Shown: positions 936-28,852, numbered from the stretch's first letter. The stretch is DNA of 36,829 nucleotides from Nocardioidaceae bacterium (GCA_032154865.1 JALDXR010000001.1:1-36829), one strand, 5' to 3'. The notes: generated by a model not told the origin, from the letters alone. Made by a program: numbers and translations.

Positions 936-1943
936 ATGACAGCGTACGGAATCTTCGGTGATGTCGAGGCGTCGCCGAAGCTCGTCCGGGCGACGCTCAG
1001 TGACCTCCTGGAGGCACATCGTCGTTCGACACCCGACGGTGAGTTCTGGATCACGATCGCTGTGCGCGCCGGCGGGACCAAGGTCCACACCGCCGTGCTC
1101 GACTGGGCCGTGCACAACGACGTGTACCACGAGATCGTCACGCCGGCGTCGAACTGGGCGCCCGACGTCGAGCCCAACAAGTTCACCATTTCACCATCGT
1201 TCATGCTCGATGTGGTAGAGATGATGCACCACGCAGATGGTGGCAAGATCTTGGCTCTCGTCGGGGACCAGACCCCGAAGACGGACGTGTTGAGGGCGCT
1301 CGCCAAGGCCAAGGACAACGGGACCGAGATCCGCGATCTCGCTGAAGCAGGTCTCACACTGATCCTGTTTCGAGGGGACGACCCACCCGCATACGACAAC
1401 CACTCCGAGGAGGAGAACATGGCAGACGATGAGACCACCGAACTGAGCCTGGCCGAGCTGGGCGAGATCGCCGACGACTCCGAGCACGACAACGCCGAGG
1501 AGGCGCAGGGGCTGCTCGAAGAGGCGTCCGAGGAAGTCGGGGTCGATCCGAACGAGTACCCCACCTGGGCCGAGCTGGCCACCGCCCTGCAGGACCTGAA
1601 GGACGAGGCCGAGGAGCAACAGGAGGAGGAGTCCGAGGGGCTCACCCGCGAGTCGCTGGTGGGCCAGAGCATCGCCGAGATCAAGGCGCTGGCCAAGGCG
1701 GCCGGCATCGAGGGCTACGCCAAGATGCGGCGCGAGCCACTGATCAACGCCCTGCTGGGAGAGGAAGAAGAGGCTCCGCCGGCGCCCACGCCGCCGGCGA
1801 AGAAGGCCGCCGGGGCGGTCAAGAAGACAGCTGCGGGGAAGGTCTCCGGCAACGGGGATGTCACCGCCCTCAGCGACAGCGACGTCGCACGGATCGCCGA
1901 CGCTGTCGTCACGAGGATGGCGACGGCGCTGTCCGCTGGCTGA
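936..1943 (+). CDS. hypothetical protein with Rho-N/SAP-like helix motif, acidic linker and Lys/Ala-rich tail
   Basis: ATG 936 is preceded by GGAGCAAGG; the track ORF opens at TTG 903. LVGQSIAEIKALAKAAGIEGYAKMRREPLINALL matches the Rho N-terminal/SAP-like pattern. It is flanked by an acidic tract (EEENMADDETTE...EEQQEEESE) and PPAKKAAGAVKKTAAGK. Confidence 0.7.
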   Translation: MTAYGIFGDVEASPKLVRATLSDLLEAHRRSTPDGEFWITIAVRAGGTKVHTAVLDWAVHNDVYHEIVTPASNWAPDVEPNKFTISPSFMLDVVEMMHHADGGKILALVGDQTPKTDVLRALAKAKDNGTEIRDLAEAGLTLILFRGDDPPAYDNHSEEENMADDETTELSLAELGEIADDSEHDNAEEAQGLLEEASEEVGVDPNEYPTWAELATALQDLKDEAEEQQEEESEGLTRESLVGQSIAEIKALAKAAGIEGYAKMRREPLINALLGEEEEAPPAPTPPAKKAAGAVKKTAAGKVSGNGDVTALSDSDVARIADAVVTRMATALSAG

Positions 1944-2362
1944 TGCCCCGGTCGTTTCGGGACGATTGGGACACCCCCGGCGGCCACGGCGGACGAGAGG
2001 TGTTGGAGTCCCTCGCCGTCCAGCTCGGGCGCAACCGCGGCTGGTCGGCGAAGGCACTTCACCGTCACTGGCGGGAGGTCATGGCCGAGGTTGTCCAGGG
2101 GCGTGTCCTGAAGAGCACCGTCTCACCTCAGGAGTTCAACACCTTCCGCCGGCGCCGGCTCGACGAGGGGCTCACCGACGAGCAGCTCGCCCTGTCGTTC
2201 GAGGTCTACGCCACCGCCGTCATCTACGGGCCCGCCAGGGTGTACCACAACGACCTGTGGCGCACGTATGCCGGCACCTGGGCTCGATGGACCAGTCAGG
2301 TCCCAGCGCCCGCCACAGGGCCTCTGGAGGGCCAATCAGAGCGTTCTGACTGGCAACGCTGA
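1943..2362 (+). CDS. hypothetical protein
   Basis: ATG overlaps the upstream TGA (TGATG). 139 aa, GC3-rich, no recognisable motif. Confidence 0.65.
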   Translation: MPRSFRDDWDTPGGHGGREVLESLAVQLGRNRGWSAKALHRHWREVMAEVVQGRVLKSTVSPQEFNTFRRRRLDEGLTDEQLALSFEVYATAVIYGPARVYHNDLWRTYAGTWARWTSQVPAPATGPLEGQSERSDWQR

Positions 2363-2384
2363 CCAACTACGGTCCCACACGCGA

Positions 2385-2413
2385 CAGAGGCCCCGTTCAC
2401 GACAGGGCCTCTG
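2385..2413 (+). terminator. perfect 9-bp stem hairpin (CAGAGGCCC-11 nt-GGGCCTCTG) in an intergenic gap
   Basis: The arms at 2385-2393 and 2405-2413 are exact reverse complements. It lies 23 nt after the stop at 2362. There is no U-tract. Confidence 0.5.
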
Positions 2414-2449
2414 GCAGTACCAACCCCAACGATCCAGAAGGAGAAGGTG

Positions 2450-3067
2450 ATGCCGAAGGTACCACCGTTCGAGCCTGCTCGTCCAACGTTGACACTGAAG
2501 ATGTTGAATGATCTACGCCAGCAGGCGCAGCGACTCAAGATGACAGGGATCGAGCGGGAGATCACCAACCTCCTCCTCTTCGAGGGCTACGACCTGCGTT
2601 GGGCGATGTACACCGGCACCAACTTCGCCAGCGCGATGGGCGGCCTCATCGAAAGAGGCACTGTCGTTGTGAAACACGCCCTCCATTCGCTGGAGGAACG
2701 GGGTTGGATCGACCGCGGCGTCAACGGCGATGGTCAGACCTACGTCGAGCTGACGACGAAGTTCATCGCTGCCTGCCGGCTGGCATGGCAGCGGTATCTG
2801 GTCCGTCGTACCGTGGGCGCAGTGAGATGGCAGAAGTGCAACGGTGATGGCGCAGTCGCTGATCTGCTGCATCAACGGGCGCTGGGGCGTGGACGCGGAT
2901 CGTACAAAGATCGTCTGAAATCGGTGGCTGATGCGTACATCGACGGTGTAGAAAGAAGACAGAACTCAGGGTGGGTTTCCCACCCTGGCAGGGTGGGAAA
3001 GAAACCCTCGCAGGGTGGGAATCCCACCTTGAGGCTCATCGCCGGTGAACGGAAATCTGGTGCCTGA
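2450..3067 (+). CDS. winged-helix (MarR/Rep-like) DNA-binding protein; candidate replication initiator
   Basis: ATG 2450 (or GTG 2447) follows GAAGGAGAAGG. The central region TNFASAMGGLIERGTVVVKHALHSLEERGWIDRGVNGDGQTYVELT looks like a wHTH recognition helix plus wing. The gene's 3' end contains the 22-bp iterons. Confidence 0.7.
   Translation: MPKVPPFEPARPTLTLKMLNDLRQQAQRLKMTGIEREITNLLLFEGYDLRWAMYTGTNFASAMGGLIERGTVVVKHALHSLEERGWIDRGVNGDGQTYVELTTKFIAACRLAWQRYLVRRTVGAVRWQKCNGDGAVADLLHQRALGRGRGSYKDRLKSVADAYIDGVERRQNSGWVSHPGRVGKKPSQGGNPTLRLIAGERKSGA
2966..3031. repeat. three tandem 22-bp iteron-like units, each starting nCAGGGTGGG
   Basis: CAGGGTGGG occurs at 2967, 2989 and 3011, exactly 22 bp apart. 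Unit 1 contains GGGTGGG-ttt-CCCACCC and unit 3 contains GGTGGG-aat-CCCACC. The period is not a multiple of 3 and the peptide is not repetitive. Confidence 0.8.
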
Positions 3068-3128
3068 CCTGGGCCGATGCCGGATCGAGGTCTCGCGTTA
3101 TAAGAAGGACCACAACCACTTCGTTCCA

Positions 3129-3147
3129 CTCAGTGCTTCGCACTGAG
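3129..3147 (+). terminator. 8-bp stem hairpin CTCAGTGC-ttc-GCACTGAG
   Basis: Exact inverted repeat in the 137-nt gap after the stop at 3067. No U-tract. Confidence 0.4.
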
Positions 3148-3170
3148 CTGCACGAAGACTGATAAACAGT

Positions 3171-3185
3171 CCGGCCTGCGGCCGG
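3171..3185 (+). terminator. 6-bp GC stem hairpin CCGGCC-tgc-GGCCGG
   Basis: Exact inverted repeat 20 nt upstream of the ATG at 3205. It could be a terminator or a 5' UTR structure. Confidence 0.3.
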
Positions 3186-3204
3186 AACAACTGAGGTACT
3201 GACG

Positions 3205-3951
3205 ATGAAACCAACTCCGCAGGAGATCAGGTCAGCCCGGCGGATCCGCTTGTCCAGTCAGTCACAGCTGTTGTACGAGACGGACCGTTACGGGAACCGG
3301 GTGTACGACGATGAGGGGGAGCAGATCTGGGATCTCGGCCGGGCTCCGGTGGTGCTCGAAGCCGTCGGCGTGCCCAGGACCTTGTGCCAGGCCACGTTCG
3401 CCGGCTCGCAGTTCACCGAGATCGACCGGGTGCGGGACTGGTACGTCGACTCGCTCGCCGACGGTGTCGGCGGCGAGTACCTGTCGGTGCTCATCGGTGA
3501 CGCCACCAACTACACTGCTGCTGCAGTTCTGCGCAACGCCGTGAAGCACGGGCTCACCGTTGCCTGGTACGACTGGAACACCTTCACCCAGCGCTACACC
3601 GACAACATCATCCGAGATCGGCTGATCACCCACGGTAACGCCGAGGAGTCGGCGTCGGCATCCAGCGAGGTGTACACGGCGGAGGACGAGGACTTCCACA
3701 TCCGTTACGTCTACGAGGTCCTGGCGATCGTCGAGTTCAACATCGACGATGTCCGGGACTTCGCCGTGCCCGACATCTGCGCCATCTTCCGGCACCGCAC
3801 CAGCGCCGGCCTGATCACTGTGGTCACCGTCCCCACCGCCAATGGGGGTCAGATGCGAGAGAGCGCGTCCAGCTTCGGCGAACGCGGTGCTCTCCTCCGC
3901 CTGTTCGAGCACGAAAGTGTGGTCTTCGATGGAAGACAACGACATCGCTGA
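3205..3951 (+). CDS. hypothetical protein; positional candidate for a helicase loader
   Basis: ATG follows CTGAGGTACTGACG. 248 aa with no intact Walker A. LSVLIGDATNYTAAAVLRNAV sits where a P-loop would be in DnaC-like loaders. It lies between the iteron-bearing gene and the DnaB-like helicase. Confidence 0.6.
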   Translation: MKPTPQEIRSARRIRLSSQSQLLYETDRYGNRVYDDEGEQIWDLGRAPVVLEAVGVPRTLCQATFAGSQFTEIDRVRDWYVDSLADGVGGEYLSVLIGDATNYTAAAVLRNAVKHGLTVAWYDWNTFTQRYTDNIIRDRLITHGNAEESASASSEVYTAEDEDFHIRYVYEVLAIVEFNIDDVRDFAVPDICAIFRHRTSAGLITVVTVPTANGGQMRESASSFGERGALLRLFEHESVVFDGRQRHR

Positions 3952-4366
3952 CTTCGGCGCCGAGACCTACAACGTCGTGATCCTCGAACCGACGCTGGTG
4001 TACCTCGGCAACTCGCGCCGGCGGCGGTGGCGGATGCGTACCCTCACCACCGCCGATGTCGTCGCCGAGTACCGGGTCAGCGAACTGATGGGCCGGTGGA
4101 TCAACCAGCAGGGCTATATGTACTCGGTGCGCACGGCGATCTGGGGGTTCGGTGACCGCGAGATCTTCAACGCCCTGATCGAGCACGTCGATCGTCTCTT
4201 CGGCCGTTACGTGTTCCGCTATGAACACTTCGAGCGTGAGGACGACGCCCGCGCTGCGTTGATGGCCGACGGCAGCATCCACTCGGTGTACGACGCCGAC
4301 GAGGACCGCCTGGAGCGGCTGTGGGGGATGCGCGGTCACCGGGTGCAGATCGGTGGTGCCCCGTGA
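3929..4366 (+). CDS. hypothetical protein
   Basis: In the 23-nt overlap with the upstream gene, this frame has the high GC3. An alternative GTG start is at 3977. 145 aa. Confidence 0.6.
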   Translation: MEDNDIADFGAETYNVVILEPTLVYLGNSRRRRWRMRTLTTADVVAEYRVSELMGRWINQQGYMYSVRTAIWGFGDREIFNALIEHVDRLFGRYVFRYEHFEREDDARAALMADGSIHSVYDADEDRLERLWGMRGHRVQIGGAP

Positions 4367-5661
4367 GCGGTGACCCCGAGATGATGCTCCTCGCCCGGAT
4401 CATCGACACCGGTGACATCGTCACCGTGATCGAGGCCGGCGTGAAGGACGACTGGTTCGCCTCCGAGCGCGGGCTCGCCTCGTGGGACTACGTGCGCACG
4501 TACTGGGCGCAGCACCGCGAAGTGCCCACGGAGGAGGCGTTCGCCCGACGCTTCCCTGACGGCCGTCTGGAGCCCAATGGTGAGCCTCTGGGGGCACTGG
4601 TGGCCGAGCTACGGGGCAAGCGGGGCTATCTGCTGCTGTCAGACGGGCTCAAGGAGTCGGTCGACCACCTCTCCAAGGTCGCTCCCGAGGATCGTCCCGG
4701 GATGGTCACCGAGGTGGCCTCGTATCTCGTGGCGATGGCGGCCGAGATCGTCACCGACACCGCCGAGTCGACGGTCGAGGCCGTCACTGACACCGCCGAT
4801 GATTACCTGGAGTACGTGATGACCAAGGAGCCGCTGTCCGTCACCGGTGTGCGCACCGGCATCGACTTCATCGATCGTGTCACCGGCGGGATGCAGCCCG
4901 AGCAGCTGTACATCCTCGGCGGCCCACCGAAGTCGGGCAAGTCGACGATCGCCCTGTGGTGTGCGATGCAGGCCCACGCCCAGGGTGAGCGCGTCCTGTT
5001 CGTCGGCCACGAGATGTCCAACGAGGAGCAGAAGCAGCGGCGCTTCTCGCTCGGCGCCGGCGTCAACCTCAACCTGATCAAGGAGGGGCTGCGAGACAAC
5101 CCGCATGCCGAGACCGTCCGGCGCAAGCTGGTGGCGTTCATCGAGGAGTCGGCGGAGTATGGGGGCGAGCTGTACTTCGTCCATGACAACAACCCGTTCC
5201 TGTCCGGGATCGTGGCCAAGATTGAGCAGTACCATCCCACCGTGGTGGTGGTCGACGGGCTCTACCTGATGCATGACGACAACGGTGAGTCCGACGGTTC
5301 GCCTCAGGCATTGACCAACATCTCTCGGGCGATCAAGCGCTTGGCGCGCTCGCATCATCTCGCCATCTTCGCCACGACCCAGGTGTTGGAATCGAAGATG
5401 ACCAAGAGTGGGGGCGTCACCCTGTTCAGCTTCGGCTACACGTCCGCCTTCGGACAGGACGCCGACACCGTGCTCGGGGTCTGGCGCCCGGACCACACCC
5501 AGCCTTCCTCGAACATGCGCGTCGTCGCCTCCCGCAACTCGCTCGGTGCCGAAGGAACCATCGAGATCGACTTCCACGACGGCAGGGTCACCGACACCAC
5601 TGGTGACAACGAGGTCGTCAACTTCCAGGGCGAGTTCGAGAGCAGCAATGTCACTGACTGA
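4363..5661 (+). CDS. dnaB: DnaB-like replicative DNA helicase
   Basis: GTG 4363 overlaps the upstream TGA (GTGA); an alternative ATG is at 4381. Walker A LGGPPKSGKST, Walker B-like TVVVVDGLYLM, and the RecA-fold C-terminal half typical of DnaB or phage gp4-type helicases. Confidence 0.9.
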   Translation: MSGDPEMMLLARIIDTGDIVTVIEAGVKDDWFASERGLASWDYVRTYWAQHREVPTEEAFARRFPDGRLEPNGEPLGALVAELRGKRGYLLLSDGLKESVDHLSKVAPEDRPGMVTEVASYLVAMAAEIVTDTAESTVEAVTDTADDYLEYVMTKEPLSVTGVRTGIDFIDRVTGGMQPEQLYILGGPPKSGKSTIALWCAMQAHAQGERVLFVGHEMSNEEQKQRRFSLGAGVNLNLIKEGLRDNPHAETVRRKLVAFIEESAEYGGELYFVHDNNPFLSGIVAKIEQYHPTVVVVDGLYLMHDDNGESDGSPQALTNISRAIKRLARSHHLAIFATTQVLESKMTKSGGVTLFSFGYTSAFGQDADTVLGVWRPDHTQPSSNMRVVASRNSLGAEGTIEIDFHDGRVTDTTGDNEVVNFQGEFESSNVTD

Positions 5662-6586
5662 TACCCCCGTCGAGTACGCCCTCGAAGCACTGGGCGTCGA
5701 GATCGTCGGCGCATCCGGTGACGAGATCCAGTGCTTCTGCCCGGTGCACCACCTGACTCGGGGTCGGGCCCAGTCGCACCCTCGCTTCTACATGAACGCT
5801 GAATCCGGCGCCGCCCTGTGCTTCACCTGCGGTTGGCGGGGCAACCTGGCCCGGCTGGTCTCCGATCTCGAAGCCGACATCGACCTGGACGACTTCGAGT
5901 TCACCGTCCTTGTACGTCGGACCGACCGCCTCACTCGTGCTGGAGAGAGTGAAGGAGAGGAGGAGGCGGTCGATCCGTACGTCTCCGAGTACGCCTTCAA
6001 CAAGAACCCCTACCCACCGCACAAGCAGCTGCAAACTAGGCACCTGACTAAGGCCGTGGCGATGCGGTTGAATCTGCGCTGGGACGAGGCTCGCCGGCTG
6101 TGGTTGATCCCGGTGCTCGGCTTCCACGGGGAGTTCCTCGGGTGGCAGGAGAAGGGGCCCGGGTACTTCAACAACGTGCCTCCGAGAATGCGCAAGCGGC
6201 GCTCCCTGTTCGGGCTGCAACAATCGACCGGGAACCGGGTGTTCGTAGTCGAGTCCCCCCTCGACTCCGCCCGGTTCCTCCGTCACGGGCTCTCCTCGGT
6301 GGCCACCTACGGCGCTGCCATGTCGAGCGACCAGCTGCACATGGTCTGCCGGCGCTACAAGCACATCGTGCTCGCCTACGACAACGACCGCGCCGGCTGG
6401 GATGCCACGGCGTCGGTGGCCGATCAGCTGCGCATCATCTATGGTCGCCCGGCGTTGTACTACCGCTACCCACCGGGAGCCCGCGGCGAGGACCCAGGCT
6501 CGCTGTCCGGGGCGCAGTTCCGGCTCGCCGCAGCCGAACCACTGCCCGTGCCGCCAGGGATCGTGCGCTCGCTCCAGGAGCTGTGA
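5648..6586 (+). CDS. dnaG: DnaG-like DNA primase (CHC2 zinc finger + Toprim)
   Basis: ATG 5648 overlaps the helicase 3' end. Zinc finger CFCPVHH...CFTCGWRGN. Toprim signature VFVVESPLDSARF ... IVLAYDNDRAG. The upstream part of the track ORF (5408-5647) is Ser/Pro/Arg-rich out-of-frame helicase sequence. Confidence 0.9.
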   Translation: MSLTDTPVEYALEALGVEIVGASGDEIQCFCPVHHLTRGRAQSHPRFYMNAESGAALCFTCGWRGNLARLVSDLEADIDLDDFEFTVLVRRTDRLTRAGESEGEEEAVDPYVSEYAFNKNPYPPHKQLQTRHLTKAVAMRLNLRWDEARRLWLIPVLGFHGEFLGWQEKGPGYFNNVPPRMRKRRSLFGLQQSTGNRVFVVESPLDSARFLRHGLSSVATYGAAMSSDQLHMVCRRYKHIVLAYDNDRAGWDATASVADQLRIIYGRPALYYRYPPGARGEDPGSLSGAQFRLAAAEPLPVPPGIVRSLQEL

Positions 6587-16279: not shown

Positions 16280-16830
16280 CCGTGCTGGGTATCGATCCAG
16301 GGATGAGCGGTGCGATCGCCTACGTCCACCAAGGCAAGCTCCTGGAGGTCGCCGACATGCCGGCGGTCGGCGGTGACATCAGCGGGCCCCTGCTGCATCA
16401 GATGGTGCGCATGATCCCGGTGGAGTGGGCTGCGGTCGAGCGGGTTCACTCGATGCCCAAACAGGGTGGGGCGACAACGTTCAAGTTCGGCATGGCCTAC
16501 GGCATGGCTCGGATGGCGGCCGGCGGTCTGCTCGTGCCGATGGTCGAGCCCACGCCGAACGTGTGGAAGAAGCACTTCAACCTCAGCTCGGACAAGGAGA
16601 AGTCACGGCTGCTGGCACTGAAGCTGTTCCCGGACAAGTCCGAGCTGTTCAAGTTCAAGAAGAATGAAGGGCGGGCTGAGGCAGCGCTGATCGCACTGTG
16701 GTGCGAGCGCCTACACGCGGCTCCGAACTACGCTGACCCCGATGGCACACCTGAACGTGTCCCTCGACTTCGACTCCGTATCAGAGCAAGCGACCGGGAG
16801 CGGCTGGCGCGTCATCGACTGGCTCGATGA
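16276..16830 (+). CDS. ruvC: RuvC-like Holliday-junction resolvase
   Basis: GTGA overlap at the start. N-terminal VLGIDPGMSGAIA (RNase H-fold catalytic Asp), VERVHSMPKQG, and C-terminal NEGRAEAALIALW. The last roughly 30 codons are Arg-rich with low GC3 and overlap the next gene. Confidence 0.85.
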   Translation: MTVLGIDPGMSGAIAYVHQGKLLEVADMPAVGGDISGPLLHQMVRMIPVEWAAVERVHSMPKQGGATTFKFGMAYGMARMAAGGLLVPMVEPTPNVWKKHFNLSSDKEKSRLLALKLFPDKSELFKFKKNEGRAEAALIALWCERLHAAPNYADPDGTPERVPRLRLRIRASDRERLARHRLAR

Positions 16831-19708: not shown

Positions 19709-20032
19709 ATGCCCCTGCCGAAGCCACCCATCTCCAACATGACGGAGTTCGTGGTCTTCTGCTTCGTCAGCCTCGTCGTCCTCGTCTTCTTCCTCTCCAC
19801 GGTCGGCATCTTCGTCGGCATCATCACCGACTCGACCTTCGACTTCACGCCGTTGGTCAATGCGATGACCGACATCCTCACCACCATCATTGGTGCACTG
19901 ATCGGCTACATCGCCGGCAAGGGTGAGGCTCAGGCGCGGGCGGCGGAGGAGAAGGCCAAGGAGGAAGCTCGGATTGCCGCTGAGAGGTCAGCGACGACGA
20001 AGGCGGCGGCGACTGAGCAGGATGGCGCCTGA
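19709..20032 (+). CDS. second holin-like or lysis-accessory membrane protein (2 TM + charged tail)
   Basis: TM segments [26 protein letters not shown] and [14 protein letters not shown], then a Lys/Glu/Ala-rich helix. Confidence 0.6.
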
Positions 20033-21066
20033 TGGCGATGACTCCGAAGCACGGGCTGGGCGCCATCGCAGCGATGGTCGCGGTGATCGGCGCCGGCGTA
20101 GCGATGAGCTTGATCGGTGACGAGGCGAGCGGCTCGGGAGCGGTGTCGCCCACTACGGTCGAAGCTCCACCTGACTCCTCCGGTATCTCTGTTGGTCCTC
20201 CGGGACCGCCGGGGGAGCCGGGACTGCCAGGCGAAGACGGTCAGTCGATCGTCGGCCCTCCGGGCGAGCCCGGGGAGCGCGGTCCTCGCGGAGCTACAGG
20301 TAGCCCCGGTACTCCCGGTCTCGACGGCGTTGACGGCGTCGGTGTGCCTGGTGCGCCCGGCGCAACTGGGGCGACCGGCGCCACTGGGGCGACGGGGGCT
20401 CCGGGCGTGGGAACACCCGGTCCGCAAGGAGTGCCGGGCCCTCCAGGTCAGTCCATCGTTGGTCCGCCGGGGGCTGACGGGAGCGACGGCGCTCCCGGTG
20501 AGCGCGGACCTCGGGGACTGCCAGGTAGACCAGGAGCGCCAGGAGAATCAGTCCAAGGGCCGCCCGGAGAGCAAGGTCCGCCAGGTGAATCAGTCGTCGG
20601 ACCGCCGGGACCACAGGGTGAACAGGGTATCCCGGGCGCCGATGCCACCGATGCGCAGGTGGCCGCAGCTGTTGCTGCGCACTGCGCTCCGCTCAACGAC
20701 TGTGTCGGTGCGACCGGAGCTACGGGCCCGCAGGGTCCGCCCGGTACGCCGGCGGCGATCATCCCCTTCGTGCGCGGACTCGTCGCTGCCGACTGCACCA
20801 TCCTCGGCGGTTCAGGGTTCACGTGCACACAGCTCGGCACCGGGCGTTACCAACTCACCTGGGACACGCCGTTCGTGAACCGACCGACGCTGCTCGTGGC
20901 CAAGGGATTCACCAGTCCTGATGTCGACGCCGGCACCGGCGTGCAGCCGGGCGAGAGCATGGTCGTCGATGTGATCACCATCACTCAGGCGATCGTCGCC
21001 ACCGGCAGTGCGGCGGGCGTGCTGCAGAACTCGTCGTTCGGCTTCTTCGCCATCGGCACGCCATGA
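20032..21066 (+). CDS. membrane-anchored collagen-like protein with C-terminal beta-rich globular domain
   Basis: N-terminal [21 protein letters not shown]. About 150 aa of Gly-X-Y triplets. A roughly 110-aa C-terminal domain ([20 protein letters not shown]...). Confidence 0.9.
20194..20643 (+). repeat. Gly-X-Y triplet-coding region with four periodic G(Q/E)S(I/V)(V/Q)GPPG breaks
   Basis: [24 protein letters not shown]... includes [16 protein letters not shown]. The breaks are QSIV, QSIV, ESVQ and ESVV. Confidence 0.9.
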
Positions 21067-28423: not shown

Positions 28424-28852
28424 ATGAACGTTCTTCCCGTTGCACTGGGCCGCCTGGCTGGCCGCATCGTCATCGACGGTGATCACTGGCTGTGGACTGG
28501 CTACATCGACGCCAAGGGCTACGGCGCGGCCAGGCACCCGGTGCACGGGAAGGTGCGTCGTGTTCACATCATCGTCTGGGAGCTGCTTGTCGGTCCTCGG
28601 ACACCGGGCCTGCAGTTTGATCATCTGTGCCGAGTTCGGCACTGCTGTAACCCGGCACATTTGGAAGAGGTGACAGCGGCCGAGAACACCGATCGTGGTG
28701 CAGCCCGACGTGGTCACCATCTGACACGCACACACTGCAGTCACGGCCACCTGCTCGTCGAGCATGGCTACATCGATCCGCGTCGCGGTCAGTGGCGCTG
28801 CCGAGTGTGCCTCCACGAAAGTTATTTGCGCAGGTCAGCGCAGTCTGACTGA
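28424..28852 (+). CDS. HNH homing-type endonuclease
   Basis: DGDHWLWTGYIDAKGYG...VHIIVWELLVG...LQFDHLCRVRHCCNPAHLEEVTAAEN is the classic phage HNH_3-type signature. Confidence 0.85.
   Translation: MNVLPVALGRLAGRIVIDGDHWLWTGYIDAKGYGAARHPVHGKVRRVHIIVWELLVGPRTPGLQFDHLCRVRHCCNPAHLEEVTAAENTDRGAARRGHHLTRTHCSHGHLLVEHGYIDPRRGQWRCRVCLHESYLRRSAQSD

Follow-up and report, generated by a model that had tools for sequence, protein, structure and literature searches.

A phased dyad array within a winged-helix gene

We analyzed a 36,829-nt stretch of DNA from a Nocardioidaceae bacterium (GCA_032154865.1, JALDXR010000001.1:1-36829; hereafter, the window), focusing on a short repeat array that lies inside an open reading frame (ORF) at 2450-3067 on the + strand (stop codon at 3065-3067). 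The ORF encodes a protein of 205 aa, a candidate replication initiator. The nonamer CAGGGTGGG occurs on the + strand at 2967-2975, 2989-2997 and 3011-3019, as a preliminary description of this DNA had reported together with the exact 22-bp phasing, and its reverse complement lies at 2979-2987 (exact) and at 3023-3031 (with 1 mismatch). The whole array spans 66 bp (2967-3032) and consists of three dyad units, to which no strand is assigned. Unit 1 (2967-2988; CAGGGTGGG-TTT-CCCACCCTG(G)) and unit 3 (3011-3032; CAGGGTGGG-AAT-CCCACCTTG(A)) are each symmetric at 9/10 positions, and the internal palindromes previously noticed in them are both of the 9+3+9 type. Unit 2 (2989-3010; CAGGGTGGG-AAAGAAA-CCCTCG) is degenerate, with 5/10 symmetric positions, an intact left half-site and a right arm reduced to CCCT; this degenerate form is kept in one relative, L014. 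A low-GC stretch adjoins the left flank of the array at 2903-2966.

Within the window, the array is the only place where any 7-, 8- or 9-mer forms an equally spaced triple. Under a first-order Markov model, phased triples arose in 0/300 simulations for k=8, 0/300 for k=9 and 4/300 for k=7, and only a single further copy of the exact CAGGGTGGG 9-mer was found in the window, at 16462. Tandem Repeats Finder did not report the array because the half-sites alone are repeated.

The 205-aa protein comprises a winged helix-turn-helix (wHTH) domain at approximately residues 56-98 (nt 2615-2743), with the recognition helix at about residues 69-84, followed by a helical C-terminal domain at about residues 98-172. 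Residues 173-194 form a predicted disordered stretch encoded by the repeats, which leads into the conserved tail LIAGERKSGA; in the AlphaFold2 model, residues 173-205 have a predicted local distance difference test (pLDDT) score <50. The repeat-encoded peptide, SGWVSHPGRVGKKPSQGGNPTLRL, is itself non-repetitive, as stated before. The family profile matched the wHTH region of MecI, MarR, ZitR and Crp structures in the PDB (E 0.007-0.1), with the match to these structures covering helix 2, the recognition helix and the wing, and family members matched Pfam MarR_2, HTH_Crp_2 and HTH_36, although only some relatives did so, and weakly. These profile and family-member matches uphold the earlier assignment of a winged-helix product to 2450-3067. 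The window protein itself had no match in Pfam or PHROG, and tblastn found none in 50,697 phage records. Judging from these sequence comparisons, 2450-3067 is a member of a new winged-helix gene family. In one relative (L010, 390-1490), gene calling joined the wHTH gene to the ORF preceding it in a 366-aa fusion, which may reflect an artefact of the calling or a genuine read-through product.

Divergence of the array and covariation with the recognition helix

For comparison, we assembled a set consisting of the window and 12 metagenomic relatives with available DNA (designated by L numbers), which were found through protein searches and contig look-ups. The preliminary description had proposed to check whether the phasing is conserved, and each of the 12 homologous genes proved to contain a phased array in the corresponding place, with a lineage-specific sequence; the refuting condition named there, homologues lacking any repeat, was thus not borne out. 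Thus, in 13/13 family members, the window included, the array occupies the same codons, directly before the conserved tail. The arrays of the relatives comprise 2.5-4 dyad units, and among the 13 sequences the best period is 22 bp in 11, 23 bp in L015 and 21 bp in L016.

Each specificity group has its own array sequence. The window and L014 share the dyad CAGGGTGGG-N3-CCCACCCTG, and the other dyads are CAGGGGG-N7-CCCCCTG in L006, CCGACGAATCGTCGG in L002, TCAACGAATCGTTGA in L003, CTGACGAATCGTCAG in L009, GTGACGAATCGTCAC in L013, CCGGGAA-N5-TTCCCGG in L011, AGGTTGC-N4-GCAACCT in L016 and, in four units each, GGTAGC-N5-GCTACC in L012 and GGTCGCC-N4-GGCGACC in L015; L001 carries the half-site CAGCAGAC. 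Among the four closest relatives, identity is 61% in the array, compared to 87% in the 66 nt before it and 92% in the 36 nt after it. Across the relatives, the mean nucleotide identity is 0.50 for the array versus 0.86 for the last 36 nt of the gene (3032-3067). The window and L014 show the reverse pattern, with 89% identity in the array and 61% just upstream. On these alignments, the array is a hypervariable cassette, the units of which are homogenized within each genome, a pattern characteristic of recognition sites that act in cis and not of constraint on the coding sequence. No further copy of the dyad with up to 2 mismatches was found in any locus examined, which suggests only one target for the protein in each genome segment.

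Several arrays show peculiarities of their own. In both L012 (5692-5786) and L015 (680-777), a fourth dyad unit is located 34 bp upstream of three phased units, and L015 combines its 23-bp period with an even (N4) spacer. The array of L008 (960-1025) is a mosaic that combines L002-type units (1 and 3) with one L001-type unit (2) (comparison arrays: L001, 10516-10581; L002, 10465-10530). Furthermore, close relatives with different arrays co-occur, namely, L001 and L002 in one sample and L005 and L008 in another. Profile scans of IMG/VR and JGI metagenome contigs with the family alignment and with protein P0015 yielded no confirmed locus, and a third protein search with a 25-sequence profile retrieved almost only members already known. 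The conserved-tail motif had 0 matches in viral contigs and 4 in genome contigs, the latter from unrelated taxa and about as many as chance alone would yield with 19 bases specified.

We counted symmetry over 30 units, all set in one fixed register of 22 nt whose dyad centre is position 11. Mirror positions are complementary in 225/300 cases (75%), and the innermost pair, which is impossible in a hairpin, is complementary in 23/30 units. Of the mismatches, 7 are G.U if read on the + strand, 12 if read on the - strand and 56 are of other kinds, without + strand enrichment of G.U, and several units retain only a direct half-site (units 2 and 3 of L001; unit 2 of the window). These mismatch patterns argue against RNA hairpins in the array, and the symmetry is of the kind displayed by double-stranded DNA sites. 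The dyad symmetry, together with the divergence of the array relative to its flanks, corroborates the earlier view of a DNA signal overlaid on coding sequence.

The array distance correlates with the distance between recognition helices (residues 66-80; Mantel r=0.61, p=3e-4), and the correlation persists when the rest of the protein is controlled for (partial Mantel r=0.66, p=1e-4), compared to r=0.20 for the rest of the protein alone. The clearest case is the pair of the window and L014, in which 56% of the other residues differ, but the helix start GTVV.KH and 89% of the array are common; similarly, members of the DHVSRG/DLVKRG group have the core GACGAATCGTC in common. This covariation makes the 2450-3067 protein the likely binder of the array. 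The sites lie inside the ORF, and it is from the covariation only that we infer binding by its product; with this qualification, the array is a protein-binding DNA array that co-evolves with the product of its own gene. Comparative metagenomics alone can thus separate a DNA signal from the coding sequence that it overlaps.

The flanks of the array and the neighbouring genes

The last 10 codons and the stop of the 205-aa gene (CTCATCGCCGGTGAACGGAAATCTGGTGCCTGA; 3035-3067, + strand) are nearly invariant across the relatives at the DNA level, synonymous sites included. The codons used in the tail are non-preferred (GGT in 12/12, GAA in 12/12 and AAA in 11/11), whereas elsewhere in the gene GAG and AAG are preferred and GGT is a minority codon. 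This usage points to a DNA- or RNA-level constraint on the tail. RNAalifold suggested that TGGTGCCT (3057-3064) pairs with the Shine-Dalgarno region of the next gene (3192-3199), but no covariation was found for this pairing.

The intergenic region contains a conserved low-GC patch, a candidate DNA unwinding element (3097-3126; no strand assigned), which starts 30 bp past the stop. Its GC content is 43% in the window, versus 66% overall, and 33-43% in the relatives, and it falls within the 0.07% least stable 30-bp windows; across 8 loci, it ranks 1-7 among the least stable 30-bp windows, and first in 3 of them. The segment GTTATAAGAAGGA is located at 3097-3109, as previously given, although its description as unusually AT-rich has to be toned down to mildly so.

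Beyond the patch, three conserved stem-loops were predicted on the + strand at 3118-3186 (H1, 3118-3157; H2, 3157-3171; H3, 3170-3186) in 11/11 sequences (the window, L001, L002, L003, L006, L009 and L011-L015). H1 is long and three-tiered, with the apical mini-hairpin deleted in the window; it was missed by RNAalifold owing to a misaligned MAFFT alignment of the intergenic region. The H2 stem is GACTG/CAGTC in the window, ACCAC/GTGGT in L012, CCAC/GTGG in L015 and CCGC/GCGG in L013, and H3 is GC-rich, with a terminator-like match on the - strand (3186-3170). Compensatory changes occur in every tier, and the G.U pairs fall mostly on the + strand. By this pattern, H1-H3 are probably RNA elements of an intergenic leader (a processing site, terminator or attenuator), and they need not be part of an origin. 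The two hairpins of the preliminary description (3118-3157 and 3170-3186) exist and are joined by a small third one; they resemble RNA elements more than components of an origin.

A terminator-like hairpin, CAGAGGCCC/GGGCCTCTG, is also found directly upstream of the 205-aa gene, with an equivalent in L006 (CAGAGGCCCCC/GGGGGCCTCTG). A direct copy of ACAGGGCCTCTGG lies 86 bp before it in the window, so that an alternative pairing might form; the segments involved are 2315-2327 and 2385-2413.

The gene that follows the intergenic region (3205-3951, + strand) encodes a 248-aa DnaC/IstB-like AAA+ protein, a candidate helicase loader. Its Walker A motif, LIGDATNYTAAA, is degenerate with respect to the intact GxxGxGK[ST] (family consensus GDGSNYT), the lysine being replaced by tyrosine in both the window protein and the family consensus. 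The protein has no Pfam match, and two PHROG families of DnaC-like loaders match 3/8 and 2/8 members of its family (E 0.04-0.06). With the AlphaFold2 model (pLDDT 67), the top Foldseek match in the PDB was Escherichia coli DnaC (6qel_G; prob 0.99, E 4e-3), followed by DnaA and IstB; these matches have prob 0.94-0.99, but E of at least 4e-3 and a template modelling (TM) score of ~0.4, and the BFVD matches were phage DnaC proteins (E 8e-4, TM 0.42-0.46). The fold and the weak PHROG matches thus mark the product of 3205-3951 as a DnaC-like candidate. The loader previously proposed at this position is retained as a candidate with a DnaC-like fold.

Further downstream on the + strand lie genes for a DnaB-family replicative helicase (4321-5661; Pfam DnaB_C, 3.8e-25; phrog_19, 8e-48) and a Toprim DNA primase (5408-6586; Pfam Toprim_2, 1.7e-9; phrog_47, 1.6e-33); the primase coordinates are those of the maximal ORF, whereas the gene itself probably begins close to where dnaB ends. 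The downstream succession given earlier (an ORF with a degenerate P-loop, a DnaB-like helicase and a primase) agrees with these findings. In the window and in the relatives alike, the genes are arranged as follows: tail/baseplate genes, a 92-aa ORF, a 346-aa Rho_N protein, a 135-aa ORF, the 205-aa gene, the 248-aa gene, a small ORF, DnaB, the Toprim primase, an SNF2 helicase, PolA and a RecA-like gene. In all 9 relatives with enough flanking sequence, the order of wHTH gene, DnaC-like gene, small ORF and DnaB is kept. In every relative, as in the window, the gene for the 346-aa protein with its Rho_N (SAP-like) domain (903-1943 in the window) keeps its place two genes ahead of the wHTH gene.

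The window belongs to an uncultivated phage, and Megablast of 2000-6000 against the 50,697 phage records gave no near match. When DnaB and PolA are compared, the nearest phages in culture, at ~29% identity, infect Streptomyces and have genomes of 113-116 kb; BRock and LuckySocke are examples. In LuckySocke, gp109 and gp110 have no homology to the two window proteins, and its DnaC-like gene is not preceded by a phased repeat. Searches of the window detected neither a terminase nor a ParA, integrase or repressor.

A candidate replication origin and the competing interpretations

We consider it fairly probable that the 66-bp array comprises three binding sites for dimers of the wHTH protein encoded by its own gene and that, together with the low-GC patch, it constitutes the replication origin of the phage. 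An origin is the best reading because the next gene is DnaC-like, genes for DnaB, a primase and PolA follow, and the low-GC patch is conserved. Judging from architecture and gene order only, replication would most likely start at the array. The scheme of initiator, loader and origin put forward in the preliminary description is retained as far as the phased, wHTH-linked array and the DnaC-like gene are concerned; homology to lambda O or P was not found.

In the proposed mechanism, wHTH dimers would bind the three dyads and form a nucleoprotein complex; the dyads, spaced about two helical turns apart, would therefore lie on one face of the DNA. This complex would destabilize nearby low-GC DNA, either at 3097-3126 or on the other side of the array, at 2903-2966, and the conserved C-terminal tail or the helical domain of the bound protein would recruit the DnaC-like protein (3205-3951) with DnaB (4321-5661). 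Primase and PolA would come next. The predicted disorder of the repeat-encoded peptide would explain how the protein tolerates a DNA signal within its gene.

Several observations weigh against an origin. The 205-aa family has no significant homology to any known initiator, and its matches to the PHROG annotation 'replication initiation O-like' (E of at least 0.03) do not surpass those to generic transcriptional regulators. The AlphaFold2 model of the 205-aa protein is poor overall (pLDDT 54), too poor for a fold search with it to be meaningful. The low-GC patch, at 43% GC, ranks only seventh among the non-overlapping windows of the stretch, and its position alone could explain it, given that GC content is in any case lower between genes than within them. 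The GC skew curve does not inflect near 3 kb, and the covariation test rests on 10 related sequences. Finally, three dyads at ~22-bp spacing also fit operator arrays.

An operator array is, in our judgement, unlikely. Under this alternative, the protein would be a MarR-like regulator, and the three dyads would be its operators at the end of its own gene, controlling read-through into the replication genes either as a roadblock or together with the downstream hairpins. The sequence-level similarity of the protein is solely to repressor-type wHTH families (MecI, MarR, ZitR and Crp), two homologues are named MarR-family regulators by JGI, and terminator-like hairpins do come after the gene. Three dyads at about two-turn spacing resemble phage operator triplets, such as lambda OR1-3, and lineage-specific pairs of protein and site are also typical of heteroimmune repressor/operator systems. 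However, the sites are located in the 3' coding end rather than at a promoter, and a promoter scan found no promoter-like site within 1800-4400. The window protein has neither a curated Pfam MarR/MarR_2 match nor an operator at a promoter. Furthermore, no other site, and hence no regulon, was found in any locus examined, the tight conserved linkage is to the DnaC-like gene and dnaB rather than to a divergent promoter, and the window showed no sign of an integrase, a repressor or a lysogeny module.

It is very improbable that the palindromes act at the RNA level, as three mRNA hairpins for stability, processing or translation. The array region does fold strongly when single-stranded (-27.9 kcal/mol, z=-6), the adjoining intergenic region has RNA-like conserved hairpins, and Rfam gives matches of a hairpin type (miRNA-like), albeit sub-threshold ones only. 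This interpretation was rejected given the symmetry that reaches the innermost pair, the absence of a + strand G.U bias (7 versus 12), the units reduced to a direct half-site, the conserved helical phasing of 21-23 bp and the covariation with a DNA-binding recognition helix. A packaging site, with the array as the pac/cos-type site of a small-terminase-like wHTH protein inside its own gene, appears just as remote. Small terminases combine an N-terminal (winged) helix-turn-helix domain, a helical oligomerization core and a C-terminal tail that touches the large subunit, with pac often lying inside terS, and the domain layout of the 205-aa protein resembles this architecture. Yet no terminase large subunit is encoded within 10 kb on either side in the relatives or in the 36.8-kb window, the gene sits between the tail genes and the helicase-loader/dnaB block, and Pfam and PHROG show no terminase match, so that this reading was rejected as well. 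The least credible option is a partition centromere, in which a parS-like array would be bound by a centromere-binding protein and the downstream P-loop-like protein would be the motor. Known par loci consist of repeated dyads beside the genes for a DNA-binding protein and an NTPase-like protein, and the array, the wHTH gene and the NTPase-like gene resemble such loci. This option was also rejected: the 248-aa protein matches the DnaC/DnaA/IstB clade of AAA+ proteins rather than ParA/MinD and has no lysine in Walker A, the genes are arranged in the opposite order to parA-parB-parS, and the context is a large phage replication module.

Relation to known systems and specificity of the array

By analogy, the candidate origin described above most likely falls under the known lambda/SPP1 arrangement, in which the initiator gene harbours the origin, here with a protein of a new family. 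Among lambda, phi80, 82 and P22, the site sequence and the DNA-binding domain of the initiator vary together, as do the array and the recognition helix here. At least three dyad sites at about two-turn spacing, as in lambda-type origins, are present in the window. The lambda origin lies inside gene O and combines an AT-rich tract with iterons that are imperfect inverted repeats of 19 bp (PMC7466680). This layout of dyad-symmetric initiator sites inside the initiator's own gene, an AT-richer tract adjoining them and a next gene that brings a host-type DnaB helicase (PMC7466680) would have its counterpart here in the array, the mild low-GC patch and the DnaC-like gene. The window protein, however, has no sequence homology to O or P by Pfam and PHROG, and the parallel is therefore one of logic, not of family. 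Lambda has four to six sites, compared to three here, and its array is located mid-gene, whereas the present one is at the extreme 3' end, followed by a conserved tail of 10-11 residues. In addition, the AT-rich tract is outside the ORF here and much weaker, the partner is DnaC-like rather than P-like, and both DnaB and a primase are phage-encoded.

In SPP1, gp38 binds the oriL repeats inside gene 38, which is followed by genes for the loader gp39 and the DnaB-family helicase gp40 (PMC6316719). The repeats lie within the gene of their binder and are followed by an AT-rich unwinding element (PMC6316719), as they appear to be here, and the order of initiator, helicase loader and phage DnaB-family helicase is the same in both. 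Unlike in SPP1, where the repeats are plain and direct, the units here are dyads, no homology to gp38 or gp39 was found by PHROG, Pfam or PDB sequence searches, and the 36.8 kb contain no second, oriR-like copy.

Two further systems also bear comparison. The iteron plasmids pPS10, R6K, RK2 and pSC101 have sites spaced by ~22 bp beside an AT-rich segment and a winged-helix initiator, and in the oriV of the IncQ plasmid RSF1010, hairpin-forming priming signals lie beside the iterons. However, Pfam detected no Rep_3/WH1-WH2 signature in 25 family members, which have a single wHTH domain followed by a helical domain; the plasmid sites are asymmetric and bound by monomers, whereas the palindromic units here suggest dimer binding; and the array here lies inside coding sequence. 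With MarR/MecI repressors, the 205-aa protein shares a profile similarity that, though weak, consistently covers the segment from helix 2 through the recognition helix to the wing, and palindromic targets would fit dimer binding. It differs from them in falling below curated thresholds, in the extra helical domain and conserved tail, in sites that are not at a promoter and in the replication-module context.

More tentatively, the array and the recognition helix may form a fast co-evolving specificity module, the array being a cassette within the disordered linker between conserved flanks; we regard this as possible but rather doubtful. If so, this module would diversify among co-occurring close relatives, partly by unit-wise mosaicism as in L008, and each phage would possess a private origin that co-infecting relatives or satellites could neither fire nor titrate. 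The invariant tail DNA (3035-3067) would then be a shared helicase-loading or unwinding element. To our knowledge, no origin is known for this phage clade, the uncultivated members of which are large (~111 kb) and high in GC, and the locus provides it with a concrete candidate for both origin and initiator. A mechanism of the proposed kind is familiar, but covariation as clean as in this series is unusual. The 13 natural pairs of protein and site amount to a specificity-swap series that could bear on how a winged-helix recognition helix reads DNA and on the design of orthogonal replicons for high-GC hosts.

Elsewhere in the window, a collagen-repeat protein is encoded at 20032-21066 (Pfam Collagen, 5e-19) and an HNH endonuclease at 28424-28852 (HNH_3, 4e-12).

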